The notes below the pieces were generated by a model that had not been told where the DNA came from, did not search any database, and saw only the letters and a program-made list of their open reading frames with translations. A program made the position numbers and the translations under genes. From Bacteroidota bacterium (lineage in GTDB: Bacteria > Bacteroidota > Bacteroidia > Bacteroidales > NBLH01), in the NCBI GenBank assembly GCA_039714415.1, contig JBDLJL010000002.1, positions 14,269 through 78,268 of the forward strand: DNA of 64,000 nucleotides, in the 5' to 3' direction. Of the stretch, positions 5,680 through 28,650 are shown piece by piece; positions within the stretch are counted from its first letter, which is position 1, and the number at the start of each line of letters is the position of its first letter.

Positions 5680-6126
5680 ATGTCCGATATATTTTTCTCC
5701 GATGAGTATTTTATGAAAGAGGCTTTGAAAGAAGCAAATAAGGCTCTTGATGCTAATGAAGTGCCTATTGGTGCGGTCATTGTTTCAAACAACAAAATTA
5801 TTGCCCGAGGGCATAACCTGACTGAAACCCTGAACGACCCTACAGCCCATGCTGAGATGCAGGCATTTACTGCCGCTACAGAATACCTTGGGGCAAAATA
5901 TCTGAATGAGTGTACGCTTTATGTAACATTAGAACCTTGTACAATGTGTGCCGGAGCAGCCTATTGGTCACAAATTGGAAAAATTGTTTATGGTGCATCA
6001 GATGAAAAAAGAGGTTATCAAAAGCTTAAAACCGATATTCTGCACCCAAAAACAGTGGTCGTTTCAGGTGTTATGGAAAACGAATGTACCACCCTGGTTA
6101 AAGATTTTTTTAAATCCAAACGCTAA
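5680..6126 (+). CDS. tadA: tRNA adenosine(34) deaminase
   Basis: Contains the HAEMQA and LEPCTMCAGA zinc-binding deaminase motifs. Length is 148 aa. Confidence 0.9.
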   Translation: MSDIFFSDEYFMKEALKEANKALDANEVPIGAVIVSNNKIIARGHNLTETLNDPTAHAEMQAFTAATEYLGAKYLNECTLYVTLEPCTMCAGAAYWSQIGKIVYGASDEKRGYQKLKTDILHPKTVVVSGVMENECTTLVKDFFKSKR

Positions 6127-6262
6127 AACACAGTCTAGAAATATTTTATCAGTCATGTCAGGAATAACATTTAATTCCTCAGCTGTTCGGTAAAGTTCCC
6201 GGATGGCTTTTTCCCCTAAATTCAATGAATATTTATTAATAGATAGATCAGTATTTAAACAA
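6099..6262. repeat. Left copy of the direct repeat flanking the cytochrome island (last 9 codons of tadA plus the mqnD 3' fragment)
   Basis: Aligns by eye with 28480-28650. Identity is roughly 80-85 percent over the first 120 nt and decays toward the island side. Confidence 0.8.
6130..6262 (-). pseudogene. Orphan 3'-terminal fragment (about 45 codons) of an mqnD-like gene, with the stop codon lost
   Basis: The translation LSINKYSLNLGEKAIRELYRTAEELNVIPDMTDKIFLD matches the C-terminus of the intact gene at 28510-29340 (YVNEYSLDLGENGKKAIRELYRTATELNVIPKMTDKIFLD). It is part of the left direct repeat. Confidence 0.8.
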
Positions 6263-6416
6263 TACTTTTTCACCTAATTCCTGATTGCTTGAAATTTTTA
6301 ATAGGTTCTGAAAAGTTAGATTCTGTACTTTTGGATACTTAACAAGATTTATTTTGTCCAGATTTATTTAATATTTAATATTGTATAAAGTAAATATATG
6401 AACGTGTTCCAAAAAA

Positions 6417-7424
6417 ATGAGTAAAATTTTTCTTAGAACAGTAATTCTTGGGGGTTTCTTATTTTTCGGTTTTAATATTGTATTCTCACAGGATACAATT
6501 AAAAATGAAAAACACACCTATGTAAGATGGGTAAGTCAATTCCCATCTGTCAAAAAAGAAAAACAGGAATTTTCTAAACGCATTTCGAAGGTTATTTTTG
6601 GAAAAGAACCTCTTTTTTTAAAAAAGCCGTTTAATGTGATCGCTAAAAACCCAAATGATTTCTGGATATTGGATCAGGGAAGAGGAGGTATTGTTCATAT
6701 AAAAAAAAGTTCTGCTGAAATCCCCAGGTTTATTTTAAAAGAATTAGAAGGCTTTACTTCGTTGGTTGGGGTTTCTTCAATTGATGATGGGAAAATTTTA
6801 ATTACAGATTCTCATTTAGATAATGTTTACCTGATAGATTTATTAAAAAAGAAAATAATACCATTAAATGAGGCTCTTATACTAAAACGCCCAACCGGTA
6901 TTGCTTATTCTAAGATTACTGACGAAATTTGGGTGGTAGAAACTGGTTCACATAGTATTTGTGTATTAAATCGAGAAGGAGAGATTCTAAAAAGAATAGG
7001 TCAAAGAGGTAAAGGTCCCGGCGAATTTAATTTCCCTACATTTATATGGATTGACAAGTTAGGTAATGCATATATAGTGGATTCTATGAATTTTAGGATT
7101 CAAATATTTAATAAACAAGGTGAGTTCGTAACTACATTTGGCCAAATTGGAGATGCTTCAGGCTATTTTTCACGACCCAAAGGAATTGCTACAGACTCTT
7201 TTGGAAATATTTATGTGGCCGATGCTTTATTTCATGTGGTTCAAATTTTTGATAAATCTGGTAGATTTTTATACCGATTTGGTCAACAAGGAAATGGCAA
7301 AAGTGAGTTTTGGATGCCTACGGGAATATTTATTGACGAAAAAAACTATATTTATGTGGCAGATAGTTATAATTCCAGGGTACAGGTTTTTCAATTAGTT
7401 ACAAGTGAAAAAGGGGAAAAGTAA
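6417..7424 (+). CDS. Secreted NHL-repeat (6-bladed beta-propeller type) protein
   Basis: It has a signal peptide. Repeated units of the form G.G.GEF.FP..I..D..GN.YV.DS.N.RIQ.F occur, for example GKGPGEFNFPTFIWIDKLGNAYIVDSMNFRIQIFN. Confidence 0.8.
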   Translation: MSKIFLRTVILGGFLFFGFNIVFSQDTIKNEKHTYVRWVSQFPSVKKEKQEFSKRISKVIFGKEPLFLKKPFNVIAKNPNDFWILDQGRGGIVHIKKSSAEIPRFILKELEGFTSLVGVSSIDDGKILITDSHLDNVYLIDLLKKKIIPLNEALILKRPTGIAYSKITDEIWVVETGSHSICVLNREGEILKRIGQRGKGPGEFNFPTFIWIDKLGNAYIVDSMNFRIQIFNKQGEFVTTFGQIGDASGYFSRPKGIATDSFGNIYVADALFHVVQIFDKSGRFLYRFGQQGNGKSEFWMPTGIFIDEKNYIYVADSYNSRVQVFQLVTSEKGEK

Positions 7425-7451
7425 TTAATAGAGGTTAGCTTAAGTTTCAGC

Positions 7452-7487
7452 GACCAACAAGTGGGTTATTTAACCCATTTATTGGTC
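7452..7487. promoter_or_regulatory. Composite palindrome GACCAA-caag-TGGGTTA-tt-TAACCCA-ttta-TTGGTC between the NHL gene and the 12-heme cytochrome gene
   Basis: Read directly. It is not followed by a T run, so it may be either a protein-binding site or a weak terminator. Confidence 0.4.
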
Positions 7488-7694
7488 AAATACCACAAAT
7501 AATTAATAACTGAATAGCTGCTTTTTTAAATACGGAATTAATGATTGGCGAAGATAAAACTTTTTTTACTATTCATAATCAAGTGATTGAAGTTCAAGAG
7601 TTTTTTTTTAATATATTTATTTCATGACAACTATTAAAATCTATTGATTAGGCATTATATATGTGTAATGCTGTTTAGTTTAAAGGTGTATATA

Positions 7695-9401
7695 ATGAAA
7701 AAATTAACAATTAATATATTCTTTATTTTAATATTGTCATCAGGGTTCATAAGTGCTCAATCAGTTATTAGCAGTCTTCATAATTTATCAGTAAGTGGTT
7801 CCGGGACAGTGAAAGCCACTGCAGAATCAGAAGTCTGTTTATTTTGTCATACACCACACAGTTCAAACCCATTAGGACCTTTATGGAACAGAAATGATCC
7901 TGGCTCTACTTATATTATATATGACAATACAATAAGTAGTACTTTTATCGCTATTCCCGGACAACCTGATGGAAGCGCTTTACTTTGCCTTTCATGCCAT
8001 GATGGAACAATTGCCATGGGTAATGTTCTTAGTAGAAGTACAGAAATTGCTATGGCTGGTGGATTTACAACAATTCAGGGACAAAAAAACCTTACAACTG
8101 ACTTATCAGATGACCATCCTGTATCATTTGTTTATAATTCTGCCTTAGCTGCTGCCGATGGTCAGTTAAAATTTCCGCCGGAACATCCCGTAATATTAGA
8201 TAATAATAGTAAGCTACAGTGTACATCTTGTCATGATCCACACAAAAATACATATAAACAGTTTCTGCGGGTATCCAACCAATTCTCAGCATTATGTTTT
8301 AATTGTCATGATAGAAATTATTGGTCAGCATCCAGCCATCAAAGTTCAGTTGCAACATGGAGTGGTGCAGGTATAAACCCGTGGGCACATATTGAAACCC
8401 CTTATCCTAATGTAGCTGAAAATGCATGTCAAAATTGTCATAGCCCACATACTGCTTCTGGCAAAGCTCGTTTGTTGAAATCTGGTTTTGAAGAAAACAA
8501 TTGTTTGGATTGCCATAATGGTAATGTGGCTGCTACCAATATAGAAACTGAATTTAATAAAGCATATCGTCATAATGTATTTGCTTACAACCAGCTTCAT
8601 GATCCACAGGAAAATGCTGATCCTGATGTGATGCATGTTGAATGTGTGGACTGTCATAACCCTCATGCTGTTAATAATTCCACGGCAAATGCGCCAAATG
8701 CAAATGGGTTTTTAGCAGGAGTACGTGGAATTAATCAAGCTGGAATTCCGGTTAATGTGATCCAGTATGAATATGAATTATGTTATCGTTGCCATGCAGA
8801 TAATGCAGTAGTTGCCAGTCCAACTAACAGACAAATTGATTTAAACGACAATAATGTACGTCTTGAATTTGATGTAGCTAACCCATCATATCACCCCATT
8901 GGTGGCGCTGGTCAGAATACTAATGTCCCAAGTTTAATATCTCCATTAAACGAATCCAGTATTATTTATTGCACAAGCTGTCATGCAAGTGATGGAACAA
9001 GCTCACCTGCAGGGCCACATGGTTCAATTTATCCCAGTATCTTGAAATATAGATATGAAACAACAGATTATACCATTGAATCATCTTCAAACTATGAACT
9101 TTGTTACTCCTGCCATAGTCGCGCTTCTATTTTGAATGATGAGTCGTTTATACATTCCGTGCACCTTTTAGATCCTAATAATAGAAATAATCAGACAACT
9201 TGTAATACTTGTCATGACCCGCATGGAATAGACAATAGTCAGGGTAATAGCACTAATAATTCTAATTTAATAAATTTTGACCTTACTATAGTTTTACCAA
9301 ATGGCACAGGAACATTGGAATTTGTTGATACCGGTACTTTTAGTGGTTATTGTGTTTTGCGTTGCCATAATAGGGGGCATAGTGCTGGAATGAGTTATTA
9401 A
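7695..9401 (+). CDS. Secreted multiheme c-type cytochrome with 11 CXXCH plus 1 C-terminal CX3CH (start taken at MKKLTINIFF)
   Basis: Motifs in order: CLFCH, CLSCH, CTSCH, CFNCH, CQNCH, CLDCH, CVDCH, CYRCH, CTSCH, CYSCH, CNTCH, then CVLRCH. The N-terminal CH..H...PLWNR / LCLSCHDGT paired-CXXCH style is present. Confidence 0.88.
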   Translation: MKKLTINIFFILILSSGFISAQSVISSLHNLSVSGSGTVKATAESEVCLFCHTPHSSNPLGPLWNRNDPGSTYIIYDNTISSTFIAIPGQPDGSALLCLSCHDGTIAMGNVLSRSTEIAMAGGFTTIQGQKNLTTDLSDDHPVSFVYNSALAAADGQLKFPPEHPVILDNNSKLQCTSCHDPHKNTYKQFLRVSNQFSALCFNCHDRNYWSASSHQSSVATWSGAGINPWAHIETPYPNVAENACQNCHSPHTASGKARLLKSGFEENNCLDCHNGNVAATNIETEFNKAYRHNVFAYNQLHDPQENADPDVMHVECVDCHNPHAVNNSTANAPNANGFLAGVRGINQAGIPVNVIQYEYELCYRCHADNAVVASPTNRQIDLNDNNVRLEFDVANPSYHPIGGAGQNTNVPSLISPLNESSIIYCTSCHASDGTSSPAGPHGSIYPSILKYRYETTDYTIESSSNYELCYSCHSRASILNDESFIHSVHLLDPNNRNNQTTCNTCHDPHGIDNSQGNSTNNSNLINFDLTIVLPNGTGTLEFVDTGTFSGYCVLRCHNRGHSAGMSY

Positions 9402-9443
9402 TTATGAAAAAAGCTGTATGAAATAAGTCTCGATTTTTTCGGG

Positions 9444-9512
9444 TCGGTTCTTCCGCAGAAGCGGAGGCTATATGGCAAATAGAATAATGAAAAAATAAAC
9501 AGATGAAACAAG
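9444..9512. repeat. About 70-bp intergenic element, copy 1 (GGTTCTTCCGC ... GGCTATATGG ... AAAAAATAAACAGATGAAA)
   Basis: Matches 26441-26513 by eye at roughly 75 percent. A shortened third copy lies at 9566-9616. Confidence 0.7.
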
Positions 9513-9607
9513 CATGTAAAAAATAATTATTTATTTACACACACGAAAATGATTATTTTTTTCATGCGGTTCCATCCGACAAATTGAAATAATTAAAAAA
9601 TTAACGG

Positions 9608-11080
9608 ATGAAAAAATTCTTTTCTTTTAGATTCAAAATGACCATTGTACTGCTGGTTGTCATTGTATCAATTTCATTTGTTTCCTTTTTTCTTTATAAT
9701 CGTTATCTCACTAAAAAAATATATAGTAATGCCGAAGAAAATATAGTTAGTATCCTGCATTTAGTTAAGGATCAGTACTATCTGTCAAAGCATGATACAT
9801 CAAGCACATTTAATATACTAAAAAAAATTGAAGAGCATAATTGGGTTCTAAAAACATGTTTAGCAAATTCTAAAGGAAATATTTTGTATACCTCTAAAGC
9901 AAAATATCCCTTGTGTGAAATACCAGACACAAAAAAGTTATTATCCCTGACAAAAGAAGTTACTTTGGAATCACATATATATAATAATGAACCATATACC
10001 CGGATATATATGAAAATGGAAAATTCACCGAGCTGTTATGAATGTCATAGTTCGGAGATAAAAACAATTGGATATTTGGTATATGATATTTCTATGACTG
10101 GGGCAGAAAAGAATAAAGTGTTTTTATTAAAATTTACTCTTTTTAATACCATTTTTTTGGTTTTAATCATTGGACTGGTTATTAGCTTGATGCATTATAA
10201 ATTTGTTCGAAAATCATTAATGCATTTTCAAATTAAGATAGAAAAGATAAATAGAGGTAATTTGGATGAACGCATTGTTATTCCGCATACAAAAGAACTG
10301 GGACAACTTGGAGAGCATTTTAACAAGATGTTAGATAAGTTTCAAAAAACCCGAAAAGAACTTTTATTTTGTCATAAAAAAGAATTACGAAACAATAAAA
10401 AGCTTGCAACAGTTGGTGAAATGGCTGCCAGGTTAGCACATGAAATTAGAAATCCAATAACCGGAATAGCTAATGCGATAGAAATTATTGCTGATGAGAT
10501 ACCTGATAAGCAGAACAGGCCTATTTTGGAAGAAATTCAACGACAAGCAAATAGGGTTAATGATGCGATTTCGAAACTTCTTATATATTCCCGTGCTTCG
10601 GAATTGGATACAAAGGATTGTAATATTAATGAGTTGGTTAAATCTTTGGCGTTCTTTTTAAAAAATCAGAATCACAATAAAAGAATTAAATTTTTAGCAG
10701 ATTTGGAGGATGATATTCCGAACTTTTATATTGATCAGGGAAAAATTGAAAATGCACTTTTAAACCTGGGTTTAAATGCTGTACAAGCAATAAAAAAACA
10801 GGGCATAGTTACCTTTAAAACAAATTATGATGCTGCTAAAAATATCATAATGGTTAATGTTCAAGATACCGGATCAGGAATTTCGAATGAAATATTACCA
10901 AAAATTTTCAGCCCCTTTTTTACGACACGAACTGAGGGAACAGGTTTAGGCCTGGCAATTGTTAAGGATATTGTTGAAAAGCATCAAGGTAAGATTTGGG
11001 TTGAAAAAAACATAAAAAAAGGCAGTGTATTTACAATTTTATTGCCCATTATTGAGAAAGAAGAACTAATAAATATCTGA
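9608..11080 (+). CDS. Sensor histidine kinase with a periplasmic CXXCH (putative c-heme) sensor domain, HAMP, HisKA and HATPase_c
   Basis: Two TM segments flank a domain of about 150 aa containing SPSCYECHSSEIKTIGYLVYDIS. The H-box is AHEIRNPITGI and the G-box is GTGLGLAIVKDIVEKHQG. Confidence 0.85.
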   Translation: MKKFFSFRFKMTIVLLVVIVSISFVSFFLYNRYLTKKIYSNAEENIVSILHLVKDQYYLSKHDTSSTFNILKKIEEHNWVLKTCLANSKGNILYTSKAKYPLCEIPDTKKLLSLTKEVTLESHIYNNEPYTRIYMKMENSPSCYECHSSEIKTIGYLVYDISMTGAEKNKVFLLKFTLFNTIFLVLIIGLVISLMHYKFVRKSLMHFQIKIEKINRGNLDERIVIPHTKELGQLGEHFNKMLDKFQKTRKELLFCHKKELRNNKKLATVGEMAARLAHEIRNPITGIANAIEIIADEIPDKQNRPILEEIQRQANRVNDAISKLLIYSRASELDTKDCNINELVKSLAFFLKNQNHNKRIKFLADLEDDIPNFYIDQGKIENALLNLGLNAVQAIKKQGIVTFKTNYDAAKNIIMVNVQDTGSGISNEILPKIFSPFFTTRTEGTGLGLAIVKDIVEKHQGKIWVEKNIKKGSVFTILLPIIEKEELINI

Positions 11081-11118
11081 TCATGCTGTGAAACTATTTC
11101 TAATTTTAACCTAAACAC

Positions 11119-12492
11119 ATGAAGTTATTGAAAATATTGGTAATTGATGACGAAAAATTAATTCGCTGGTCTTTTGAAAAACAACTAAGCTCAAAAGGAT
11201 ATAAGGTATATACAGCTGAAACGGGTGAGGAAGGAATGAAATTATTTGAATTACATTATCCGGATTTGGTATTTGTAGACAGCCGTTTGCCGGGAATGCA
11301 GGGGTTAGAAGTAATATCCAGAATTAAATCTATAGATGATGATGTTATCCTAATTTGTATGACTGCATTTGGATCAATTGAAATGGCTGTTGAGGCAATG
11401 AAATTAGGGGCATTTGAATATTTAAAAAAACCGTTTTCTTTTGATGAAATTGATATAATAATTAACAACGTAAATAAGAAGATTAATATAGATAAGGAAA
11501 TTCAGTTGCTTAGAAGACAACAAACTGATAAGTTGACCTTTGACGATATTGTTTGTGAGTCAGAAAGCATCAAAAATATTATTGACCTTTTGAAAAAAAT
11601 ATCAAAAACAGATGCTACGACTATTTTACTTTTAGGTGAAAGTGGAACAGGGAAAGATATATTTGCCAGGGCTATTCATAATGAGAGTAATCGAAAAGAT
11701 AAATCTTTTGTTGATATTAATTGTTCATCATTACCGGAAACTTTATTGGAAAGTGAACTGTTTGGTTATGAGAAAGGTGCGTTTACTGATGCAAAAAAAC
11801 TTAAAAAGGGACTTTTCGAAATTGCAGAAAACGGCACTGTTTTTTTAGATGAAATTGGTGAAGTAAATCTTGCTACACAAGTTAAACTATTAAGTGTGCT
11901 TGAAAACAGATATGTTCGTCGCTTAGGAGGGACTCAGAACATTCCTGTAAATGTACGTATCATTGCAGCAACAAATAAAAATTTAGAAGAGGCTATTGCT
12001 GAAAAGACTTTTAGGGTTGATTTGTATTATAGGTTAAAGGTGTTTCAAATTACTTTACCCCCTTTAAATAAACGCAAAGAAGATATTGTTGCCCTAACTA
12101 ATTATTTTTTGGATATTTTTAATGCTCAATTTCGTAAAAAGATTAAGAGTATCGCCCCTAAAACAAAACAAATATTAATGCATTATAACTGGCCGGGAAA
12201 TGTAAGAGAATTAAAAAACGTCATGGAACGTGCAATTATATTGGAATCAAATGATAAATTAACTGCTAAAAACCTACCTGTTGAAATAAGAAACATCCAA
12301 CCTACCATTGAAAAAGTTAAAAATATCTATCATTTTGAAATTCCGGATGAAGGTATTTCATTAACAGAGTTGGAGAAACAGGTTATTATCCAGGCTTTAA
12401 AAAAAGCAGAGAATAACCAAACTAAAGCTTCAAAATTACTTGGAATTTCAAGGGATACCCTAAGGTATAAACAAAAAAAATACAAGATATAA
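11119..12492 (+). CDS. Sigma54-dependent response regulator (NtrC family: REC, AAA+, Fis-type HTH)
   Basis: The REC domain carries DLVFVDSRLPGMQG. Walker A is GESGTGKD, the sigma54-contact loop is GAFTDA (a variant of GAFTGA), and the C-terminal HTH is KASKLLGISRDTLRYKQKKY. Confidence 0.9.
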   Translation: MKLLKILVIDDEKLIRWSFEKQLSSKGYKVYTAETGEEGMKLFELHYPDLVFVDSRLPGMQGLEVISRIKSIDDDVILICMTAFGSIEMAVEAMKLGAFEYLKKPFSFDEIDIIINNVNKKINIDKEIQLLRRQQTDKLTFDDIVCESESIKNIIDLLKKISKTDATTILLLGESGTGKDIFARAIHNESNRKDKSFVDINCSSLPETLLESELFGYEKGAFTDAKKLKKGLFEIAENGTVFLDEIGEVNLATQVKLLSVLENRYVRRLGGTQNIPVNVRIIAATNKNLEEAIAEKTFRVDLYYRLKVFQITLPPLNKRKEDIVALTNYFLDIFNAQFRKKIKSIAPKTKQILMHYNWPGNVRELKNVMERAIILESNDKLTAKNLPVEIRNIQPTIEKVKNIYHFEIPDEGISLTELEKQVIIQALKKAENNQTKASKLLGISRDTLRYKQKKYKI

Positions 12493-12500
12493 ATGATCGC

Positions 12501-12537
12501 AGGGGCATTTAACCCAAACATTAGGGGCATTTACCCC
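12501..12537. promoter_or_regulatory. Two direct copies of AGGGGCATTTA(A/C)CCC spaced 22 bp apart, a candidate upstream activator site
   Basis: Read directly at 12501-12515 and 12523-12537. They lie about 230-250 bp upstream of the -24/-12-like box at 12753. Confidence 0.35.
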
Positions 12538-12752
12538 ACCTCATATTGAATTTATTTATCCATTCCTTTTTAGTTTATTTAACATGATAAAATAATCTTG
12601 TTAAAATTTATTGATTGCCAGGCGATTATCAGTTATATTAATTCAAATAAATTCACAATTAGTTAATATCAAAATATTATTTAAAAAGAGTTAACTTTCC
12701 AAATTGTCTTAAATATTTTTTAATTATCACATGTTCAGTCATATAGCCCTTT

Positions 12753-12768
12753 TGGTATATTGTTTGGA
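12753..12768 (+). promoter_or_regulatory. Weak -24/-12 (sigma54-like) box TGGTAT-ATTGT-TTGGA upstream of the tetraheme cytochrome gene
   Basis: GG and TTG have the canonical spacing, but the -12 element reads GG instead of GC. The box lies 45 nt before ATG 12813. Confidence 0.3.
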
Positions 12769-12812
12769 TTAATTAATATGCCTTCTATTTATTAATTAAA
12801 ACTATAACTAAT

Positions 12813-13439: not shown

Positions 13440-13464
13440 TAATGCTGAGGATTTAATTTTCTGG

Positions 13465-13491
13465 AAAGGCGGTTTTGAATCGCCTTTTTTT
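13465..13491 (+). terminator. Intrinsic terminator or attenuator after the tetraheme gene
   Basis: The stem is AAAGGCG / CGCCTTT with a 9-nt loop, followed by a T run. Confidence 0.55.
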
Positions 13492-13510
13492 CTTTTAAAA
13501 TTTATTTAAT

Positions 13511-14584: not shown

Positions 14585-14597
14585 ACCAATACCTTGA

Positions 14598-15440: not shown

Positions 15441-15444
15441 ATAA

Positions 15445-17406: not shown

Positions 17407-17414
17407 CCATTATT

Positions 17415-19610: not shown

Positions 19611-22600
19611 AATATTTAAATGGAATATATATGAAACGTGTTTATAATGTGTTGATTTCTATGCAGACAATGGCTGCATTGCTTATTTTGTATATAATTG
19701 CAATGGCGGTAGCCACCTTTATTGAAAATGATTATGGTGCCCCTGTTTCAAAACACTTTGTTTATAATGCCTGGTGGTTTGAACTTATCCAGTTTCTACT
19801 GGTTGTTAATATGGTTGGAAATGTTTTTAAATATAAGTTGTATAAAAAACAAAAGTTAAGTATCCTTTTATTTCACATTGCTTTTATTATTATTCTCATT
19901 GGTGCAGGTGTAACCCGTTATATAAGTTTTGAAGGGACAATGCATATTCGTGAAGGAGAATCAAGCAACAAGATTCTTTCAGGAACATTATTGCAAATGC
20001 ATCTGTCCTCCGGTGATTTGCAGGAAAATTATAATACAGAATTGTTTATAAGTCCCGCTGTAAATACAGAGTTTTATCATGAGTTTGAGATAAATGGGAA
20101 AAAAGTTGAAGTAGAATTGAAAAATATAATCCCGAACCCAAAAGAAACTGTGGTTGAAGTTATAGATGGAAAAGCAATAATTGATATGGTATTTGCTTCA
20201 AAACAGAATATGGACAACCATTTTCTAAAAGAAAAAGCAATATTAAGTCATGGTGGGTTAAGCTTTACATTAAATGATGAAAGCAATGGTCAATCAGTAA
20301 AATTTTATACAGAGAATAAAAAGCTTTACCTGTTATCATCTTATAATTTAAGCGTGTTGGCAATGACAGGTAGTGAACTTGATACTGTTCTAATAGCAGG
20401 CGAAAAACACGAAATTCAGCTAAAGCAGTTGTATTCAATACAAAATCAGAAATTTGTTGTTACTAATTTTTATGAAAAAGCAAGAATTTCTTATGTGCCT
20501 GGCGATATGAGAAATGGTATGCAATTTTTTGCTTTGGAATTTGATATAAAAAGCGGTGTTTCAACAAAAAAAGCTGAAATAATTAGTGCTTATGGTGCGG
20601 TAGGCTACCCTGCATCAATACAAATTAATGAAATAAATGTTGACCTTGCTTACGGTGCACAGGAAATGATTTTACCTTTTGAATTGAAATTAAGAGATTT
20701 TCAACTTGAAAGATATCCGGGTTCTGAAAGTCCGTCTTCTTATGCAAGTGAAGTAACTTTATTAGATGAAAAGAATAGTATTGATATGGATTATCGCATT
20801 TTTATGAATAATGTGCTTGATTATAAAGGCTATCGTTTTTTTCAATCATCTTATGACCGTGATGAGAAGGGAACCATTTTATCAGTAAGTAAAGATAAAA
20901 CAGGAACAATGATTACCTACCTGGGATACTTTCTTCTATCACTTGGTATGCTTTGGTCATTATTAAATAAAAACAGTTATTTTATTGAACTTCTAAAAAG
21001 AACCGGGGACATTAGGGATAAGAGAAAAGGGATTGCGACCGTTATTTTGATTTTATTATTATTTGGTACTCAAAATTCTTTTGCCCAGAACACCCGACAG
21101 CATATAGATGCTGCCCATGCTAAAGAATTTGGAAAACTATTTGTTCAGGATAATGGTGGCCGTATCAAACCTTTTAACACGCTGACTAATGAACTTTTAA
21201 GAAAAATTTCAAGAAAAGAAGAGCTGCTGGGGTTAAACTCAAATCAAGTTTATTTGGGTATGATATTTAACCCGGTGTTCTGGAAAGATGTTAAAATGAT
21301 AAAAATCAAAAACCAGGAGTTAAAAGATTTGTTGGGTGTAGTGGGCTCATATGTGTCATTTAATGATCTGGTTAACCTGGAAAAAAATGAATACAAGTTA
21401 AAATCATATGTTGAGATGGCTTTTAATAAGGAGCTATCCCAAAGGAGTAAGTTTGACAAAGATGTAATTACAGTAGATGAACGTTTAAATATTTCTTATC
21501 AGGTTCTTTCTGGTGCATACCTCAAAGTTTTTCCTATACCCGATGAAATAAATCACAAATGGTTAAACCCTTCTGGAAATAAACATATTAAAGATAGTGT
21601 TGACAGGCAGTTTGTGGCCGGTGTGTTTTCAGCATATTTTAATGCGGTTGTGGCATCTGAAAAATCTGGTGATTGGGCTAAGCCAAATGAAATTCTAAAA
21701 AGTATTAAAGATTTTCAGATGAAATATGGTTCAGAAATTATTCCATCAGAAACTAAACTTAAGTTAGAGGTTCATTACATTAATGCTGATATTTTTAATA
21801 GAATTTACATGTACTATGGAATCATTGGGTTCGTTTTTTTAATTGTTTTATTTGTGGGCATTTTAAAGCCAAAAATGAATATAAAAATATTCACAACCCT
21901 TGCCAGTATTTTGTTGGGGGTTCTCTTTTTGTTCCATACTTATGGTTTAGGTTTACGATGGTACATTTCTGATCATGCCCCCTGGAGCAATGGATATGAA
22001 TCTATGATTTATATTGCCTGGGCTACAATGCTTGCCGGCTTTTTGTTCATGAAACGTTCACCAATAACGCTGGCGGCTACCTCATTATTGGCATCTATCA
22101 CCTTGATGGTGGCCCATTTAAGTTGGATGAACCCTGAAATAACCAACTTAGTACCTGTATTAAAGTCGTACTGGTTAACTATTCATGTATCCGTTATAAC
22201 AGCAAGTTATGGATTTTTGGCCTTGGCTGCATTGCTTGGGTTTTTAAGCCTAATTCTAATTATTTTACAAACTAATAAAAATAAGGAACAAATAAACCTG
22301 ACCATTGAGGAAATAACAAATGTTAACCATATGGCAATTATTGTGGGATTGTATTTGTTAACTATTGGTGCATTTTTAGGTGGGGTGTGGGCTAATGAAT
22401 CCTGGGGCAGGTATTGGGGCTGGGACCCTAAAGAAACATGGGCTTTAATAACAATAATTGTTTATTCTTTCGTAACCCATACTCGCTTAATACCATTTTT
22501 GAACAATAGGTATACTTATAACCTACTCTCTTTATTAAGTTTTTCTTCAGTTTTAATGACCTATTTTGGTGTTAACTATTACTTGTCCGGATTGCATTCT

Positions 22601-22732
22601 TATGCCTCTGGCGATCCTGTTCCTGTTCCAGCTTATGTTTATTATATCTTAGCTATAATTTTTATAATTTCAATAGTAGCATTTTTTAAAAATTCAAAGA
22701 CTAAAGAAGAAAAGGTTTCCATATCAGTATAA
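19604..22732 (+). CDS. ccsBA: Fused System II cytochrome c synthetase CcsBA (ResB-like N-terminus plus CcsA C-terminus); alternative start at 19631
   Basis: The ResB-type N-terminus is SMQTMAALLILYIIAMAVATFIEN. The C-terminal WWD motif is WGRYWGWDPKETWAL, with multiple TM segments. ATG 19604 overlaps the stop of the 27-heme gene (ATGGTAA). Confidence 0.85.
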   Translation: MVKYLNGIYMKRVYNVLISMQTMAALLILYIIAMAVATFIENDYGAPVSKHFVYNAWWFELIQFLLVVNMVGNVFKYKLYKKQKLSILLFHIAFIIILIGAGVTRYISFEGTMHIREGESSNKILSGTLLQMHLSSGDLQENYNTELFISPAVNTEFYHEFEINGKKVEVELKNIIPNPKETVVEVIDGKAIIDMVFASKQNMDNHFLKEKAILSHGGLSFTLNDESNGQSVKFYTENKKLYLLSSYNLSVLAMTGSELDTVLIAGEKHEIQLKQLYSIQNQKFVVTNFYEKARISYVPGDMRNGMQFFALEFDIKSGVSTKKAEIISAYGAVGYPASIQINEINVDLAYGAQEMILPFELKLRDFQLERYPGSESPSSYASEVTLLDEKNSIDMDYRIFMNNVLDYKGYRFFQSSYDRDEKGTILSVSKDKTGTMITYLGYFLLSLGMLWSLLNKNSYFIELLKRTGDIRDKRKGIATVILILLLFGTQNSFAQNTRQHIDAAHAKEFGKLFVQDNGGRIKPFNTLTNELLRKISRKEELLGLNSNQVYLGMIFNPVFWKDVKMIKIKNQELKDLLGVVGSYVSFNDLVNLEKNEYKLKSYVEMAFNKELSQRSKFDKDVITVDERLNISYQVLSGAYLKVFPIPDEINHKWLNPSGNKHIKDSVDRQFVAGVFSAYFNAVVASEKSGDWAKPNEILKSIKDFQMKYGSEIIPSETKLKLEVHYINADIFNRIYMYYGIIGFVFLIVLFVGILKPKMNIKIFTTLASILLGVLFLFHTYGLGLRWYISDHAPWSNGYESMIYIAWATMLAGFLFMKRSPITLAATSLLASITLMVAHLSWMNPEITNLVPVLKSYWLTIHVSVITASYGFLALAALLGFLSLILIILQTNKNKEQINLTIEEITNVNHMAIIVGLYLLTIGAFLGGVWANESWGRYWGWDPKETWALITIIVYSFVTHTRLIPFLNNRYTYNLLSLLSFSSVLMTYFGVNYYLSGLHSYASGDPVPVPAYVYYILAIIFIISIVAFFKNSKTKEEKVSISV

Positions 22733-22792
22733 TGCCTGAAAAGAAAATGATTAAAGTTTGCTTTAAAGGCTTGTGCCCGAAAACGTAAGTTT

Positions 22793-22836
22793 CGGTATAG
22801 CCTAAAGTTTTAATAACTGAACTTTACGCTATACCG
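22793..22836. terminator. Long hairpin (17-bp stem with 1 mismatch, 10-nt loop) between the convergent ccsBA and 22890-23588 genes
   Basis: CGGTATAGCCTAAAGTT ... AACTTTACGCTATACCG. Confidence 0.5.
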
Positions 22837-22889
22837 GGACTGTCTTTTAAGATGAGAGCAATGGATAAGACGGGCTTTATGGATAAGTA

Positions 22890-23588
22890 CTATTTTGCTA
22901 CTGCTTCTTCAATTAATATTTCATATGAATATCCGTATCCAAAATCTCTGTCCAGAACAACTTTTCCTTCAATAGTTACAATATCCCCAACTTTAAATTC
23001 CTGGTTTGAAGTAACAACTAAATCAAATTTTCCGTTATAATCTGTTCCGTCCTGAAGGTGGATCCAGTTTTTTTTCATAATTGCGGCATTATATTTTGTA
23101 ACCTGCCCCCTTATTTTTACAGTTTTGCCTGCAATTTTTTCTTTAGATGAAAATAATTCAGAAATTGTTATCCCACCTTCGGCAGGATCTATTTTAACTT
23201 CATTTCTTACCACGGTTGATTTTACAGTAGAAGTATAAGTTGTTGCCTGGGCTACATTTTTGGTATCAGCAGGGCTGGTTGCCACTTTTTCCAGGAAAAA
23301 GACCGATTCAAAGTTTCTCCCCAATTCTTTACTATGAAAATCTTTCATTTCCATGCCACCTTCGTAATAGTAAGTTCCGCCTATTTCTGCCTGCATTTTT
23401 GGTACAGCCAGCCAGTTATCCATATCATTTTCTTTTACACGAAGGTAAGTATATGAACTTGTTTGAATCACTTCCTGAAGGACTACTTTATGAATTCTTG
23501 AATTATTTGTATTTGATTGTTCCTGATTTTGATCCTGGCAGCTTGAAATTAATAAGATTAAACCAATTTGAATTAAAAAAAGTCTCAT
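22890..23588 (-). CDS. Lipoprotein of unknown function, with a possible OB-fold-like C-terminal half
   Basis: The lipobox is ISSC. The C-terminal segment KTVKIRGQVTKYN...WIHLQDGT...DIVTIEGKVVLDRDFGYGYSYEILIEEA resembles periplasmic OB-fold proteins, but this is not a secure match. Confidence 0.35.
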   Translation of the reverse strand: MRLFLIQIGLILLISSCQDQNQEQSNTNNSRIHKVVLQEVIQTSSYTYLRVKENDMDNWLAVPKMQAEIGGTYYYEGGMEMKDFHSKELGRNFESVFFLEKVATSPADTKNVAQATTYTSTVKSTVVRNEVKIDPAEGGITISELFSSKEKIAGKTVKIRGQVTKYNAAIMKKNWIHLQDGTDYNGKFDLVVTSNQEFKVGDIVTIEGKVVLDRDFGYGYSYEILIEEAVAK

Positions 23589-23777
23589 ATTATTTCTTTT
23601 TAATGATTATTAATTAAGGTTATAAAATTATCTATAAAATTCTTTAATAACTACTATTATGCTTGTTAAAATCACTGTTATAAAATATTTTGTAACATAC
23701 AAAAATTAGAAATCCCAGGAATTATTTCCGGACAACTTTATAAGATCTTATTAAGCCTCCCTTTTTTTTAAAGAATA

Positions 23778-23812
23778 GGGCTATATGACCCTATTGTTGG
23801 GTTATATGACAT
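23778..23812. promoter_or_regulatory. Direct repeat GGGCTATATGACCC / GGGTTATATGACAT with 21-bp period, a candidate activator site
   Basis: Read directly. The reverse complement GTCATATAGCCC also occurs at 12738-12749. Confidence 0.35.
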
Positions 23813-23922
23813 AATTCAATTAAGCTAAAAAATGGTTTTAAATCCACTTCGCAAATTTTTATTCATCCTGAATAGCTTAATACATAGGGCTTGTGGCTAC
23901 CTGTGATTTTAAATTAAATTAT

Positions 23923-23938
23923 GGGTATAGTATTTGGT
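23923..23938 (+). promoter_or_regulatory. Weak -24/-12-like box GGGTAT-AGTAT-TTGGT upstream of the FeS/NrfD operon
   Basis: It matches the box at 12753 at 12 of 16 positions. It lies about 140 nt before ATG 24080. Confidence 0.25.
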
Positions 23939-24079
23939 TTTACCGAAATTTATAATCAGAACTTATGAAAACATTTATAATTTCTTTTAATAGTTATGCA
24001 CATATAAAATTGAATAAAAAGTAAAACAATATAGTCAATTAATAGATAGAAACTTAATTATTTCAAAATCAAATAAATT

Positions 24080-25075
24080 ATGCCTAAAGGTGAAAAAAAC
24101 AAAGAATCCTCCCGAAGAAAATTCTTGAGGTCAGGACTTGCAATAGGCGCAGGTACAGTAATTGGTGGAGGATTATTATCGTCTTGTTCAAAATCAAATG
24201 CACAAGATAATACGAACAATAAAAATGTTGAAAAGATTAAACTACTTACAACAGACGGTAAAATTGTTGAAGTAGAAAGAACAAAGCTTAGCCCAATAAC
24301 ACCAAGCGAACCGGCTGTTGGTGATGAAGCAAGAAAAGGGATACCGGGAAGAAAATTTGTAATGGTAATTGATCTTTCCAAATGTGCAAATGCCGGGAAA
24401 TGTACTACTAATTGTCAAAGTGGCCATAAACTAGAGCCCGGTCAGGAATATATGAGTGTATTTTTGATGAAAGACCATCAGTATAGTGATCCGTACTGGT
24501 TTCCTAAAAACTGCTACCATTGTGACAATCCATCTTGCGTAAAAGTTTGTCCTGTAGGTGCCACTTTTAAACGATCAGATGGATGTGTATTGGTAGATGC
24601 TGACAGATGTATTGGATGCAAATTTTGTGTTTCTGCTTGTCCATATTCAGCCAGGATATTTAATTGGAAAGCAGCAATTTCTGAACTTAATGCAGAAAAG
24701 GCTGAAGTAGAAAAAGAGAAAGAATTTTCACCGGAAACAGGTCTCCCTCATCAAATGGGAACGGTTACTAAATGTGATTTCTGTCCGGATAGGAGTAGGG
24801 AAGGGAAATTGCCATACTGTGTTACGGGTTGTCCAATGGGAGCCATATACTTTGGTGATGAAAATGAAGATGCTATATCAAATGGTACTGAAACTTTGCG
24901 TTTCAGAGAAACCATTGAGAATAAGGCAGGGTATCGGTATATGGAAGAACTGGGTACGAAACCAAGGGTTTACTATTTACCTCCGGTTGACAAAACTTAC
25001 CCATATGAAAAGGGCTTGAAAAATCTTACTGAGGAACAATTATTAAAATATAAAAACATACTCGATAAATCATAA
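24080..25075 (+). CDS. Tat-exported 4Fe-4S cluster protein (NrfC/PsrB/ActB-FeS-like)
   Basis: The twin-arginine signal is SRRKFLRSGLAIGAG. Ferredoxin-type cysteine groups include CYHCDNPSCVKVCP, CIGCKFCVSACP and CDFC...CVTGCP. Confidence 0.85.
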   Translation: MPKGEKNKESSRRKFLRSGLAIGAGTVIGGGLLSSCSKSNAQDNTNNKNVEKIKLLTTDGKIVEVERTKLSPITPSEPAVGDEARKGIPGRKFVMVIDLSKCANAGKCTTNCQSGHKLEPGQEYMSVFLMKDHQYSDPYWFPKNCYHCDNPSCVKVCPVGATFKRSDGCVLVDADRCIGCKFCVSACPYSARIFNWKAAISELNAEKAEVEKEKEFSPETGLPHQMGTVTKCDFCPDRSREGKLPYCVTGCPMGAIYFGDENEDAISNGTETLRFRETIENKAGYRYMEELGTKPRVYYLPPVDKTYPYEKGLKNLTEEQLLKYKNILDKS

Positions 25076-25080
25076 TAGCT

Positions 25081-26427
25081 ATGAAAATGAACACAGTAAA
25101 TAAACAATATAAGGAAGTTTTAGGTGATTTTCTTCCTAATTTAGGAAAACCAGACAGAAAATGGATTATCCAGGTAATTATTTTGTTACTAATAATAGGA
25201 GTAGGGCTGCTCGCTTTTGCCTACCAGCTTATTGAGGGGCAGATTGTAACCGGAATGCGCGATAATGTGGTTTTGGCTGTTTATATAGTAAATTTTATAT
25301 TTTTTATAGGTCTAAGTTATGCTGGGGCTTTAATTGCCGGTATTTTTCATTTAGGGGGTATAAACTGGGGTCGCCCCTTGCTCAGGATACTTGAAATTAT
25401 TACGCTTACATCTTTAATTGTTGGACCGGTTTTTATATTGGTATGTATAGGACGTCCGGAACGTTTTTTATATATGTTTATCTATGCACGGTTTCAGTCA
25501 CCTCTTATTTGGGATGTTATTGCTATTGTATCTGACTTGTTTTTTTGTATTGTATATTTAAATTTCACTTACATAAAAGATTTTGCAAAGCTTCGTGATT
25601 GCTCAGAATTGAAAGTTTCCAATTGGAGGAGGAAAATTTATACAATTTTTGCATGGGGTTATAATAATACAAAAAAGCAGGAAAAACTACTCAACCAGGC
25701 GCAAAATATAATGGCCGCTATCATTATACCAACTTCAATTATTGCTTATTCCTTATTAGCATGGCTTTTTGGTATGAATCAGCGTCCCGGGTGGCACAAC
25801 AGTATTTTTGCCCCTTATTTTGTACTAACCGCTGTTTATTCAGGGATTGCCCTTTTAATAATAATTATGTGGTACTACAGGAAATATTTTAAACTTGAAA
25901 AATATATTACCAAAGAACATTTTAATTATTTGGGATTTACCTTGCTTATTCTGGCTCTTTTCTACGGTTATTTTTCATTTAGCGAATATATTACGGAGTG
26001 GTATAATTCTCAAAAAACAACGAGTATCCTGTTGGATAAGTATTGGGATTTTTCAGAATATGGCTTTATGTTTTTGGTCTCAAATATTTTGGCAGCTATT
26101 CTACCCATAATTATTATAGGGTTTCCGAAATTTAGATCTGTTAATAGTATTACCATTAGCTCGGCTTTAATTTTATTTGCTCTATGGCTTAAAAGATATT
26201 TGATTGTGGTTCCATCGCTTGAAACGCCATATATCCCTATTCAGGATTACCGGGAGGAGTGGATACATTATTCTGCTACCTGGGTAGAGTGGGCTTTAAC
26301 CTTGGGGGGAATTTCTTTTTTCATCCTTGTATTTGTTTTAATGTCAAAACTTGCCCCGATTATTCCTGTATCTGAAATGGAAGAAAAGGCCAGGGGGATC
26401 AGGATTTTTTATAAAACAAGGGAATGA
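25081..26427 (+). CDS. NrfD/PsrC/ActC-family integral membrane quinol-interacting subunit
   Basis: 448 aa with about 10 predicted TM helices. It starts 5 nt after the FeS gene, and the N-terminal region is NrfD-like (AVYIVNFIFFIGLSYAGALIAG). Confidence 0.75.
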   Translation: MKMNTVNKQYKEVLGDFLPNLGKPDRKWIIQVIILLLIIGVGLLAFAYQLIEGQIVTGMRDNVVLAVYIVNFIFFIGLSYAGALIAGIFHLGGINWGRPLLRILEIITLTSLIVGPVFILVCIGRPERFLYMFIYARFQSPLIWDVIAIVSDLFFCIVYLNFTYIKDFAKLRDCSELKVSNWRRKIYTIFAWGYNNTKKQEKLLNQAQNIMAAIIIPTSIIAYSLLAWLFGMNQRPGWHNSIFAPYFVLTAVYSGIALLIIIMWYYRKYFKLEKYITKEHFNYLGFTLLILALFYGYFSFSEYITEWYNSQKTTSILLDKYWDFSEYGFMFLVSNILAAILPIIIIGFPKFRSVNSITISSALILFALWLKRYLIVVPSLETPYIPIQDYREEWIHYSATWVEWALTLGGISFFILVFVLMSKLAPIIPVSEMEEKARGIRIFYKTRE

Positions 26428-26440
26428 TTATTTTAAACTT

Positions 26441-26513
26441 GCGGTTCTTCCGCTATGACGGAACAGGCTATCTGGAAACTAAAAATAATTAAAAAATAAA
26501 CAGATGAAAATCA
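26441..26513. repeat. About 70-bp intergenic element, copy 2, running into the start codon of 26504
   Basis: GCGGTTCTTCCGC ... GGCTATCTGG ... AATAATTAAAAAATAAACAGATGAAAA matches 9444-9512 and 9566-9616. Confidence 0.7.
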
Positions 26514-27373
26514 AAAATATAATATTCAGTATTGCATTTATGCTGTTTTTAATAAACAATATGGCTATTGCCCAAGATAAAAAAAAGGACAATAAGCCCA
26601 AAAAGGTAAGGTTAAAATTAGAATACCTAAAATTAGAAGATGGTACAAAAGTATTGAGTTCAGTCTTGTATTGGAAAGATGGTAAGGACATCAACCCGGT
26701 TATTGATCAGGAAGTATCCTTTATTGCAGAAGATGATTCATCAGAATTGAAATTGGGAACTATATTGTCTAATAAAGAAGGTAAAGCAATTTTACATATT
26801 GAAAAAGACTTTAAATTTCCTGAAAATAAAAATGGCTTTACTGTTTTTACTGCGAAAATGAAAAAAAGCGATAATTATAAAAGGGCTAAAAAGTCAGTTG
26901 AAATAAAAGATGCAGATCTTGATTTTTCTCTGGATATTATTGATTCTGTCAAATTTGTGCAAGTCAAAGTTACAACTTTAGATAGTGTTGGTCAAACCAT
27001 TCCTATAAAAAGCTCTGAGGTATACGTATATGTAAAAAGGCTATATAGTTTATATCCTGTAAAGAAAGGTTATACGAATGAAAATGGGCAATTCAAAGTT
27101 GAATTCCCTACTGATATGCCTGGAGACTCTGTTGGAAATTTAAGAATAATTGTAAAAGTTCTTGATAGTGATGAGTATGGCACTATAGAAAAAGCAAAGG
27201 AAGCCCGGTGGGGAACTATTGTGTCTTTCAATGATGAAGATACTCCAAGGGCATTATGGGGTGTTGAAGCCCCTCTATGGATGATAATAGCCATATTTGT
27301 TGTGCTTGCAGGTGCGTGGTTTAATTTTGGCCTGGCAATTTATAAAGTGAACAAAATGAGAAAAGCCAATTAA
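26504..27373 (+). CDS. Signal-peptide protein with beta-rich (Ig/CarboxypepD_reg-like?) body and a C-terminal TM anchor; function unknown
   Basis: The signal peptide ends at AQD. The C-terminal helix is PLWMIIAIFVVLAGAWFNFGLAIY. It sits between the NrfD-like gene and the monoheme cytochrome gene. Confidence 0.45.
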   Translation: MKIKNIIFSIAFMLFLINNMAIAQDKKKDNKPKKVRLKLEYLKLEDGTKVLSSVLYWKDGKDINPVIDQEVSFIAEDDSSELKLGTILSNKEGKAILHIEKDFKFPENKNGFTVFTAKMKKSDNYKRAKKSVEIKDADLDFSLDIIDSVKFVQVKVTTLDSVGQTIPIKSSEVYVYVKRLYSLYPVKKGYTNENGQFKVEFPTDMPGDSVGNLRIIVKVLDSDEYGTIEKAKEARWGTIVSFNDEDTPRALWGVEAPLWMIIAIFVVLAGAWFNFGLAIYKVNKMRKAN

Positions 27374-27485
27374 TAACCGGTTTTAAGTTAAAGCTTAATG
27401 GCCAGTTCTGAGTTGGTTTATCAAGCTTAAGTAAAATTGAACTATATTTTATTATTTTATTTATTAATTATTAAAAAGAATTGTT

Positions 27486-27905
27486 ATGAAAGTGTTAAAA
27501 AAAATGAAGTTTTTATTTATGAGTATCTTGTTTGCTGGTGGAGGTTTTATACTAATTTCTATGACAAATGATATTCAGGATGACTGGCCCGTACCGGCAG
27601 AATATAAGAACATGAAAAACCCGATGGCTGGTAAGGCTGATGCAAGTAATGTTGGTAAAACCCTGTATAAAGAACATTGCGAATCATGCCATGGTAAAGA
27701 AGGTTATGGTGATGGTAAAAAATCCGGTGAACTAGATACGGAAATGAGGGATATTACATCTGCAGAAGTTCAAGGTCAAACAGATGGTGAATTATACTAC
27801 AAAAGCTTTATTGGTAGAGACGAAATGCCAAATTATGAAAAGAAAATACCTTCCAAAGATGACCGATGGAGAGTCGTTAACTATTTGAGAACGATGAAGG
27901 AATAA
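27486..27905 (+). CDS. Membrane-anchored monoheme class I cytochrome c
   Basis: It has a single CESCH, a downstream methionine region (GRDEMPNY) and an N-terminal TM helix. Confidence 0.8.
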   Translation: MKVLKKMKFLFMSILFAGGGFILISMTNDIQDDWPVPAEYKNMKNPMAGKADASNVGKTLYKEHCESCHGKEGYGDGKKSGELDTEMRDITSAEVQGQTDGELYYKSFIGRDEMPNYEKKIPSKDDRWRVVNYLRTMKE

Positions 27906-27930
27906 TTTTTTTCGAACTTATAGTAATTAG

Positions 27931-27960
27931 AAAAGGGGAATAAGTAGCCCCTTTTTCTAA
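27931..27960 (+). terminator. Intrinsic terminator after the monoheme cytochrome gene
   Basis: AAAAGGGG-aataagtag-CCCCTTTT followed by TCT. Confidence 0.6.
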
Positions 27961-28073
27961 TTATTAGGGATTTGTTTTATGCAGATATGGGATTAATCAC
28001 TTTCAAAGCGTTGAAAATAAGTTTAACTCTTTTAACCTGCATAATAAAGCAGGTTAAAAAACAAAATTGATTA

Positions 28074-28469
28074 ATGGCAAAAATAACAATGGCAATTCAG
28101 TTTGACAGATTAGATGATGTTATTCATAAGAATGACAGATCTCAATTTGATGTAACAAATCAAAATAACCATCAAACTGGAGTAAAAAGAATATCAAAAG
28201 AAGACGAATCTAAAATTTCTGAAATCAATAAAATAATAATTGAGATTGAAGAAAAATTTGAAGTTAAATGTGATAAATATTATTTGGGTAACAATATAAT
28301 AGAAAGTTTTTTTGATGTTTATTATGCTAGTTCTGGAGAATCTGGAAGCTCTGAGATAAAATTAAAAGAAATATATAGTTTCCTTTCTTTTTTAAGAAAT
28401 AAATACCTTAAAGTTAATATCCAGTGGTGTGTCTTAGATCCTAGTAATAATAGTGATGATTTTGTTTAA
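28074..28469 (+). CDS. Hypothetical protein, the last gene inside the island
   Basis: 131-aa ORF with no recognisable motif, preceded by an 11-bp-stem hairpin at 28030-28059. Confidence 0.35.
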   Translation: MAKITMAIQFDRLDDVIHKNDRSQFDVTNQNNHQTGVKRISKEDESKISEINKIIIEIEEKFEVKCDKYYLGNNIIESFFDVYYASSGESGSSEIKLKEIYSFLSFLRNKYLKVNIQWCVLDPSNNSDDFV

Positions 28470-28479
28470 GAAAATTGCG

Positions 28480-28650
28480 TAAAGATTTTTTTAAATCTAA
28501 ACGCTAAAATTAGTCCAGGAATATTTTATCCGTCATTTTAGGGATAACATTTAATTCAGTAGCTGTCCTATAAAGTTCCCGGATGGCTTTTTTCCCATTT
28601 TCACCCAAATCCAATGAATACTCATTTACATACAGTTCAATATGTTTGAA
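28480..28650. repeat. Right copy of the direct repeat (relic of the last 9 tadA codons plus the true 3' end of mqnD)
   Basis: cgt AAAGATTTTTTTAAATCTAAACGCTAA reproduces the tadA tail (KDFFKSKR-stop). The remainder is the 3' end of the intact mqnD. Confidence 0.8.

Follow-up and report, generated by a model that had tools for sequence, protein, structure and literature searches.

The tadA and mqnD genes of an uncultured Bacteroidota bacterium are separated by an inserted island of 22.2 kb, which is rich in multihaem cytochrome genes and is bracketed by two long, imperfect direct repeats of the tadA/mqnD junction itself. The island was found in a 64-kb stretch of the metagenome-assembled contig JBDLJL010000002.1; this whole stretch is called the window below, and all coordinates without another label refer to it. 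In the syntenic locus of a relative designated E, the island is absent, and the repeated segment is present in one copy. We propose with moderate confidence that the island was inserted by a homologous, Campbell-type single crossover, which would have duplicated the junction.

The duplicated junction and its empty counterpart

The junction, its two copies and the inserted segment comprise the following features:

5680..6126, plus strand: tadA (tRNA adenosine deaminase), intact, with its last 28 nt within the left repeat (PF14437/PF00383, E 2e-37)
6099..6283, no strand assigned: left direct repeat, consisting of the tadA tail, a 3-nt spacer and the mqnD 3' fragment (blastn against 28480–28674; aligns to E 10456–10651)
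6130..6283, minus strand: mqnD 3' pseudogene fragment of ~50 codons, stop lost, with a 9-nt in-frame deletion (translation and codon table)
6284..28479, plus strand: inserted island, 22.2 kb (Pfam and NCBIfam scans; absent between tadA and mqnD of relative E)
28480..28507, plus strand: tadA tail relic, the last 28 nt (KDFFKSKR*), 27/28 identical to tadA 6099–6126
28480..28674, no strand assigned: right direct repeat, consisting of the tadA tail relic, a 2-nt spacer and the 3' end of intact mqnD (blastn pairing; alignment to E)
28510..29340, minus strand: mqnD (futalosine-pathway menaquinone biosynthesis), intact (PF02621, E 2e-77)

Pairwise blastn aligns positions 6099–6216 with 28480–28596, with 101 of 118 positions identical (86%), one gap and an E-value of 1e-32. 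A more sensitive blastn search lengthens the pair to 6099–6283 and 28480–28674 (149 of 196 columns, 76%, E 3e-36), and the repeat measures 185/196 nt. When the left repeat region was compared with the whole window, the right copy was the sole further one (E 2e-30). The longest run of identity is 22 nt, and the left copy carries a 9-nt deletion relative to the right one. Within the mqnD part, the outer 87 nt are 84% identical between the copies, and the inner ~80 nt are 63% identical (Fisher P = 0.003). An initial annotation, made from the letters of the window, had described imperfect direct repeats of the tadA/mqnD junction, ~165 bp long, with identity decaying toward the island interior. The repeats and the decay are borne out by these comparisons, the similarity being far above chance and the pair the only one of its kind in the window; the length has to be corrected to the values given above.

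Translation of both copies agrees with the arrangement described in that annotation, in which an intact tadA and a stop-less mqnD fragment stand on the left, and a tadA relic and an intact mqnD on the right. The C-terminus of the window TadA is KDFFKSKR*. The minus-strand translation of the left copy is ...INKYSLNLGE followed, after a gap of three positions, by KAIRELYRTAEELNVIPDMTDKIFLD, and it then reads through (CVLAF...) for want of a stop. The single difference in the tadA tail relic, TCC>TCT, is synonymous, and the TAA of the relic (28505–28507) is located 2 nt from the mqnD stop (28510–28512).

A chance similarity or an assembly artefact could be suspected in AT-rich sequence on a metagenome-assembled contig. 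This explanation is already refuted by the repeat statistics (E 1e-32 for a pair that is unique within the window), by the colinearity of the left and right copies with MqnD and TadA at the protein level, by the alignment to E, by the relics of relatives, and by the same architecture in the independent assemblies of relatives A and D. Moreover, an assembler would not collapse or mis-join copies that are only 86% identical.

Genome and metagenome scans with MqnD yielded 160 loci, most of which were too distant or too short; the informative ones were L001 and L081. In L001 (MqnD 84%), tadA and mqnD form a direct junction, ~21 nt apart. The empty site proper, whose existence in relatives the initial annotation had put forward as a check, was found in relative E (L182, a 49-kb contig). 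The gene order there is epimerase – HepT-like – aspS – tadA – mqnD – mqnB – folE – aminotransferase ... miaB – YebC – glycosyltransferase, and it matches the window flanks on both sides with a protein identity of 86–91%, with the exception of MqnB (75%). The convergent tadA and mqnD genes of E have stops 3 nt apart and no island between them, which agrees with the ancestral convergent junction with nearly touching stops that had been postulated. Window positions 5677–6283 align to E 10034–10651, and 28480–29340 align to E 10456–11317. Thus, 196 bp of E (10456–10651), single-copy there, occur twice in the window, one copy on each side of the insert.

The HepT-like gene of E (toxin-type nucleotidyltransferase-binding) matches a 111-aa open reading frame (ORF) at 3372–3707 of the window, between the epimerase gene and aspS; no partner antitoxin gene was noticed adjoining it. 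In distant relatives, mqnD is followed by the epimerase gene. A simple inversion that would explain the orientation of the epimerase gene relative to these genomes was considered and dropped because neither aspS nor tadA is found near mqnD there.

Relics of tadA and mqnD in the window and in its relatives

The window MqnD is 91% identical to the MqnD of both A and E, and the window TadA is 92% identical to that of A and 87% identical to that of E. Exact-protein look-ups with the window MqnD and TadA returned nothing, yet the protein collection holds an identical TadA.

The two parts of the left mqnD fragment differ in their preservation. Compared with intact mqnD genes, its outer part is 84–88% identical and its inner part 61–64%, while orthologous intact mqnD genes are mostly 72–93% alike in this inner region. 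For the outer 26 codons, the comparison of the fragment with the resident mqnD gives a pN/pS of 0.17, close to the lower end of the range of bona fide orthologue pairs (0.18–0.73). Such a value is improbable for a fully neutral copy (P = 0.001) or for a pair with one neutral copy (P = 0.02). The pS of the outer fragment is 0.21 to E versus 0.43 to the window's own mqnD. The reading that the outer fragment resembles a functional, diverged allele or orthologue, rather than a duplicate decaying in situ, is therefore supported, on ~12 differences and P = 0.02. Since the outer part is allele-like while the inner part is 61–64% identical to every intact mqnD, the left copy appears to be a mosaic of a young outer part, closest to E, and an old, decayed inner part, in sequences that are short for placing a firm breakpoint. 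One inference from these few sites is that the outer part may have been renewed by later recombination with an intact junction.

On the right side, the tadA relic is unusually well kept. Directly behind the mqnD stop, the relic and three adjoining bases (28477–28504) fold into an interrupted hairpin of 10 bp, after which comes AAUUUUC. On the mqnD strand, this hairpin has a folding energy of -10.7 kcal/mol (z = -2.6), and 4 of 200 shuffled sequences fold as well; its counterpart in the left copy folds weakly (-3 kcal/mol). Terminator and promoter scans at both junctions revealed nothing above shuffled sequences, and the simple terminator scan gives the hairpin no support. Retention of the relic as an mqnD terminator may be considered, and only as a hint.

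Relative A, represented by a 48.9-kb ENA contig from ERZ25074835, carries an orthologous island, with some additional genes, between tadA and mqnD. The window-type repeat is absent from A, where the first island gene follows tadA after only 84 nt. At the other end of the island, ~110–215 nt from the mqnD stop, there is a 72–105-nt relic of the tadA 5' end, which includes the start codon and contains in-frame stops; it shares 84–86% identity with genuine tadA genes (E 9e-17 to 5e-19). Hence, the copy beside mqnD in A once included the beginning of tadA. Just before this relic, an element of ~270 nt bounded by ~25-nt inverted repeats (TTAAGGCCACCTCTAATAATTACTT...) can be noted (L163, ~14110–14385), and it looks like a miniature inverted-repeat element. 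The 15-mer end of this element occurs in one copy between mqnD and mqnB of the window (29530–29544).

The 6-kb contig of relative D, from ERZ23498512, has the order NrfD – 319-aa protein – cytochrome c – NmrA-like – tadA – decayed mqnD fragment – NHL1. Its mqnD fragment is at least 245 nt long and carries a 9–10-nt deletion placed as in the fragment of the window. The genes upstream of tadA in D (cytochrome c, NmrA-like) form the right end of the island elsewhere. Upstream of tadA, A and D share homologous sequence with 86–87% identity, and this homology includes the C-terminus of the NmrA-like protein. The NmrA-like protein encoded upstream of tadA in D is only 77% identical to its counterpart from the right end of the island in A; within A, the copy upstream of tadA and the right-end copy differ in their C-termini. 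The tadA frame of D is broken after ~codon 19 by an insertion of ~135 nt with a GC-rich hairpin (CCCCTGATAGGGG; L174, ~4092–4226). Judging by the sequence, either tadA has been inactivated or the insert may be a small mobile or intron-like element.

In relatives B and C, this set of island genes is located elsewhere, at unrelated loci; a search of the island borders of both for tadA or mqnD relics found none. The contig of C, with the island elsewhere, and that of E, with the empty site, derive from one sample series. Tandem paralogous modules composed of NrfC, NrfD and a ~300-aa protein are present twice in A (L163, 2013–9890), three times in C (L169, 1–9985) and once in the window, which points to repeated local duplication within the island.

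In relative F (L175–177 and L081; TadA 91%, MqnD 89%), the order is CcsBA – OB232 – tadA – 223-aa secreted protein – mqnD. The Ser-rich secreted 223-aa gene lies between tadA and mqnD in both F and G (L175 2263–2934, L081 ~2515–3190, L179 2715–3386), and no homologue of its product was found in the window. Its position indicates that the junction was also hit by a different, small insertion. In relative G, an unrelated 8.5-kb cluster is located between aspS and tadA (L178, 1475–9862); its products are a phosphonate-binding protein, a histidine kinase, a sigma-54 regulator, an EB_dh-family protein, DUF5777, YceI and an OB-fold protein. Hence, tadA adjoins an insertion hotspot on that side too. 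With five arrangements among close relatives, the tadA region is a recurrent rearrangement point.

Route of insertion

Under the Campbell-type model, the island would have arrived as a circle from a close relative, carrying its own copy of the junction with at least the whole tadA and ~250 nt of the mqnD tail. A single crossover of this circle with the chromosomal tadA/mqnD junction, probably RecA-dependent and without an island-encoded recombinase, would produce the order tadA – mqnD fragment – island – second tadA – mqnD. Both superfluous pieces, the mqnD fragment and the second tadA, would then decay in a different way in each lineage. In the window, ~155 nt of the mqnD fragment would remain together with 28 nt of the second tadA; in A, 72–105 nt from the 5' end of the second tadA; and in D, at least 245 nt of the mqnD fragment. 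Judging by the tadA 5' relic of A and by the mqnD fragment of D, which is longer than that of the window, the original duplication probably spanned at least 700 bp (the whole tadA plus ~250 nt of mqnD) and was trimmed lineage by lineage. The shared deletion and the shared junction architecture suggest that the relics of A, D and the window come from one event.

The topology expected of a Campbell product is present: the outer genes are intact, the inner copies are truncated, the junction is directly duplicated, and the 5' end of tadA survives as a relic in A. Pfam scans of all island ORFs found no integrase, transposase, relaxase or conjugation/transfer domain, nor were such domains found in the other window ORFs scanned; the earlier observation that the island lacks integrase, transposase and conjugation genes thus holds. 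Scans for tRNA genes and Rfam families returned no tRNA gene and no Rfam match, and no match to the island proteins was found in plasmid and phage collections. Because the duplication is long, its identity is graded, and a recombinase gene is absent, homologous recombination is a better explanation than recombination over an att core. The gene order of D, in which the right end of the island is followed by tadA, the mqnD fragment and the left end of the island, fits a circle; it could equally represent a tandem joint or a split cluster. The initial annotation had offered Campbell-type or site-specific insertion of an element with its own diverged attachment copy. Insertion and the Campbell-type route are retained here and the site-specific route is not, while the diverged copy gains support from the pN/pS of the outer 26 codons.

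As for the age and origin of the island, its proteins are about equally diverged in pairwise comparisons among the window, A and C (for example, 67–77% for NHL1 and 86–89% for NrfD). A foreign signature in GC content or tetranucleotide usage, for which a comparison with the flanks had been suggested, was not revealed: the island and the rest of the window have a GC content of 32.6% and 33.0% and a GC3 of 25.5% and 25.9%, respectively, and their tetranucleotide usage is alike. Given this uniform divergence, the host-like composition and the occurrence of the island at the same site in the genus-level relative A, the insertion is old, and the island is part of the gene pool of this lineage and not a recent distant import. 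Thus, among the possibilities initially listed (an old event, mobilisation in trans, or capture by homologous recombination), the first and the last fit best. The neighbourhood of the futalosine genes, initially regarded as perhaps coincidental, is probably just that; the position is not conserved in B and C, whose islands are at unrelated loci, so a functional link is unlikely as the cause.

Several points weigh against the Campbell-type route. The pN/pS test is based on ~12 differences, and a neighbour-joining tree of mqnD tails, meant to place the left fragment, has bootstrap values of at most 41%. The 9-nt deletion shared with D lies in a T/C-rich, slippage-prone run and is possibly recurrent. 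For the window organism itself, neither a circle nor a tandem array nor a polymorphism for the empty site was seen. The contigs of A, D and F end before the full architecture is visible. Finally, the uniform divergence among the window, A and C and the native composition are compatible with a purely intragenomic origin, and the CcsBA and OB232 genes directly upstream of tadA in F also suit a route through tandem duplication.

Such a tandem duplication is a possible explanation that we hold with clearly less confidence. It would start from an ancestral order of aspS, the island and the convergent tadA and mqnD; unequal crossover would duplicate the island, tadA and the mqnD tail, and the redundant parts would be lost or would decay in each lineage, with neither a horizontal step nor a circle. 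Besides the island genes upstream of tadA in F, this agrees with the succession of island right-end genes, tadA and island left end in D and A, which is the novel joint expected of a tandem duplication, as well as with the tandemly multiplied NrfC/NrfD modules of A and C, the flank-like composition of the island and its uniform divergence. However, a near-precise loss of the first island copy would be needed to leave aspS and tadA exactly as in E. The outer left fragment has the features of a diverged allele under selection rather than of a neutral copy of the resident gene, albeit at P = 0.02 only, and the NmrA-like copies differ both between D and the right end of A (77% protein identity) and between the two C-termini in A.

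Two further routes seem improbable. Integration by a tyrosine or serine recombinase, since lost or acting in trans, would make the repeats attL and attR, and an insertion at gene 3' ends with the ends restored and direct repeats on both sides is typical of integrative elements. Nevertheless, no recombinase gene is present in the window island, in the scanned rest of the window or among the called genes of the A–D loci, and no tRNA was found. Across the 196-bp repeat, whose original length would be at least 700 bp, identity falls gradually from 86% to 63%, with a 9-nt indel and no sharp identical core, and the repeat extents vary between lineages. No better chance can be given to a one-step insertion at widely staggered breaks, in which repair synthesis would create a true 196-bp target-site duplication with initially identical, recipient-derived copies. 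Both copies do align to a single segment of the empty site, and the mechanism of the long-target-duplication class has been left open (PMC2853133). The tadA 5' relic of A and the longer mqnD fragment of D, though, imply a much longer original duplication, and the difference between the allele-like outer part and the decayed inner part of the left copy stays unexplained. A transposon or composite insertion sequence was rejected: there is no transposase, no inverted repeats were found at the island ends among the pairs reported, and a duplication of 196 bp is not short. The two island ends share a 5-nt match, ATTGC, which was put down to chance.

The Campbell-type crossover allows one extension, which we regard as doubtful: the island may be a mobile unit without a recombinase, its attachment region being a portable copy of the host junction (the whole tadA and the mqnD tail). 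If so, homologous recombination by the host would be all that it needs to pass through its empty, integrated, tandem and circular states. The outer homology would stay young through recurrent exchange with intact, working genes of the host while the inner part decays, empty sites such as that of E would be excision products, and the D contig would be the joint of a circle or a tandem. The D contig is the only direct hint of such mobility.

Island content and comparison with known systems

The genes of the island are arranged in the following order:

First part: NHL propeller, multihaem cytochrome, histidine kinase, sigma-54 response regulator, cytochrome, NHL propeller, cytochrome
Middle: 653-aa protein, 731-aa DmsE-family multihaem cytochrome, fused ResB/CcsB, OB-fold protein (minus strand)
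Last part: NrfC/DsrO-like FeS protein, NrfD-type membrane subunit, 289-aa protein, mono-haem cytochrome c, 131-aa protein

In total, the island encodes two NHL beta-propellers and four doubled-CXXCH multihaem cytochromes. The 731-aa cytochrome exceeds the DmsE-family cut-off (288.6 versus 192.2 bits), and the fused ResB/CcsB protein is a cytochrome c maturation protein according to the family scans. The 653-aa protein has no family match in the Pfam and NCBIfam scans and is possibly an outer-membrane barrel. Judging by these predicted proteins, the cargo is likely an extracellular or periplasmic electron-transfer module. The 131-aa ORF was considered as a remnant of tadA and rejected, having a 48%-identical homologue inside the island of relative A.

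The gene of the 731-aa cytochrome contains three tandem units of 417 nt (17736–18869), 74–82% identical, which correspond to a triplicated 139-aa haem-binding module. A conserved AT-rich element of ~45–100 nt that ends at start codons can also be noted before the histidine kinase gene (9529–9614) and the gene of the 289-aa protein (26404–26510), as well as before a gene outside the island (~51443–51487, minus strand). Its copies are 80–96% alike within the window, and another copy precedes the 319-aa gene of relative D (L174, 547–606). This may be a shared leader or promoter element.

In its structure, the window insertion belongs to the class named 'insertion with long target duplication', which was defined from comparisons of restriction-modification loci (Nobusato et al. 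2000; Furuta, Abe and Kobayashi 2010, PMC2853133). The class comprises gene blocks without a mobile element that are flanked by long direct repeats, tens to hundreds of bp in length, both aligning to a single target in the empty genome; the cases in the literature are restriction-modification units of <20 kb, recognised in within-species comparisons, with repeats >90% identical (PMC2853133). Like these, the window insert is absent from the syntenic locus of E, its repeats are longer than 30 bp, align to one segment of E and overlap gene 3' ends, and it contains no transposase, integrase or other mobile element. Unlike them, it is 22.2 kb long and lacks restriction-modification genes, although the limits of the survey (<20 kb and the presence of such genes) are a screening criterion and not a mechanistic one. 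Further differences are the uncultured Bacteroidota host, the respiratory cargo, the repeat identity of 76–86% and the longer duplication implied by the relics of relatives.

Campbell-type (insertion-duplication) integration of circular DNA with chromosomal homology, as is known for suicide plasmids, reversibly produces the arrangement homology – insert – homology. The window resembles it in the direct orientation of the repeats, the intact outer genes and the truncated inner copies. In contrast to suicide-plasmid integration, no vector, replicon or circular form was observed in the window case, the donor homology is diverged, and the event is natural and ancient. Integrase-dependent islands and mobilisable elements of Bacteroidota, for example, those of the NBU type, insert at tRNA 3' ends. 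The window insertion shares with NBU-type elements the location at gene 3' ends, the restored end and the flanking direct repeats, and differs from them in the absence of an integrase, mobilisation genes and a tRNA target, in the far longer repeat and in its graded identity.

As for the cargo, the doubled-CXXCH cytochromes, the CcsBA protein and the NrfC/NrfD-like pair are similar to those of porin-cytochrome and DmsE-MtrA-type clusters of extracellular electron transfer. Unlike porin-cytochrome clusters, the island has a presumed outer-membrane component (653 aa) without a family and includes NHL propellers and a sigma-54 two-component system.

For annotation, the insertion accounts for an otherwise puzzling mqnD pseudogene fragment and tadA tail relic. 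It provides a natural example, outside restriction-modification systems and cultured models, of a large metabolic block that entered a chromosome without a dedicated recombinase and with a long duplication of its target. Its relatives, with an empty site, differing relics, a permuted joint and islands at other loci, form a system for studying the movement of islands by host recombination alone, and the case illustrates how respiratory capacity is reshuffled among sediment Bacteroidota.

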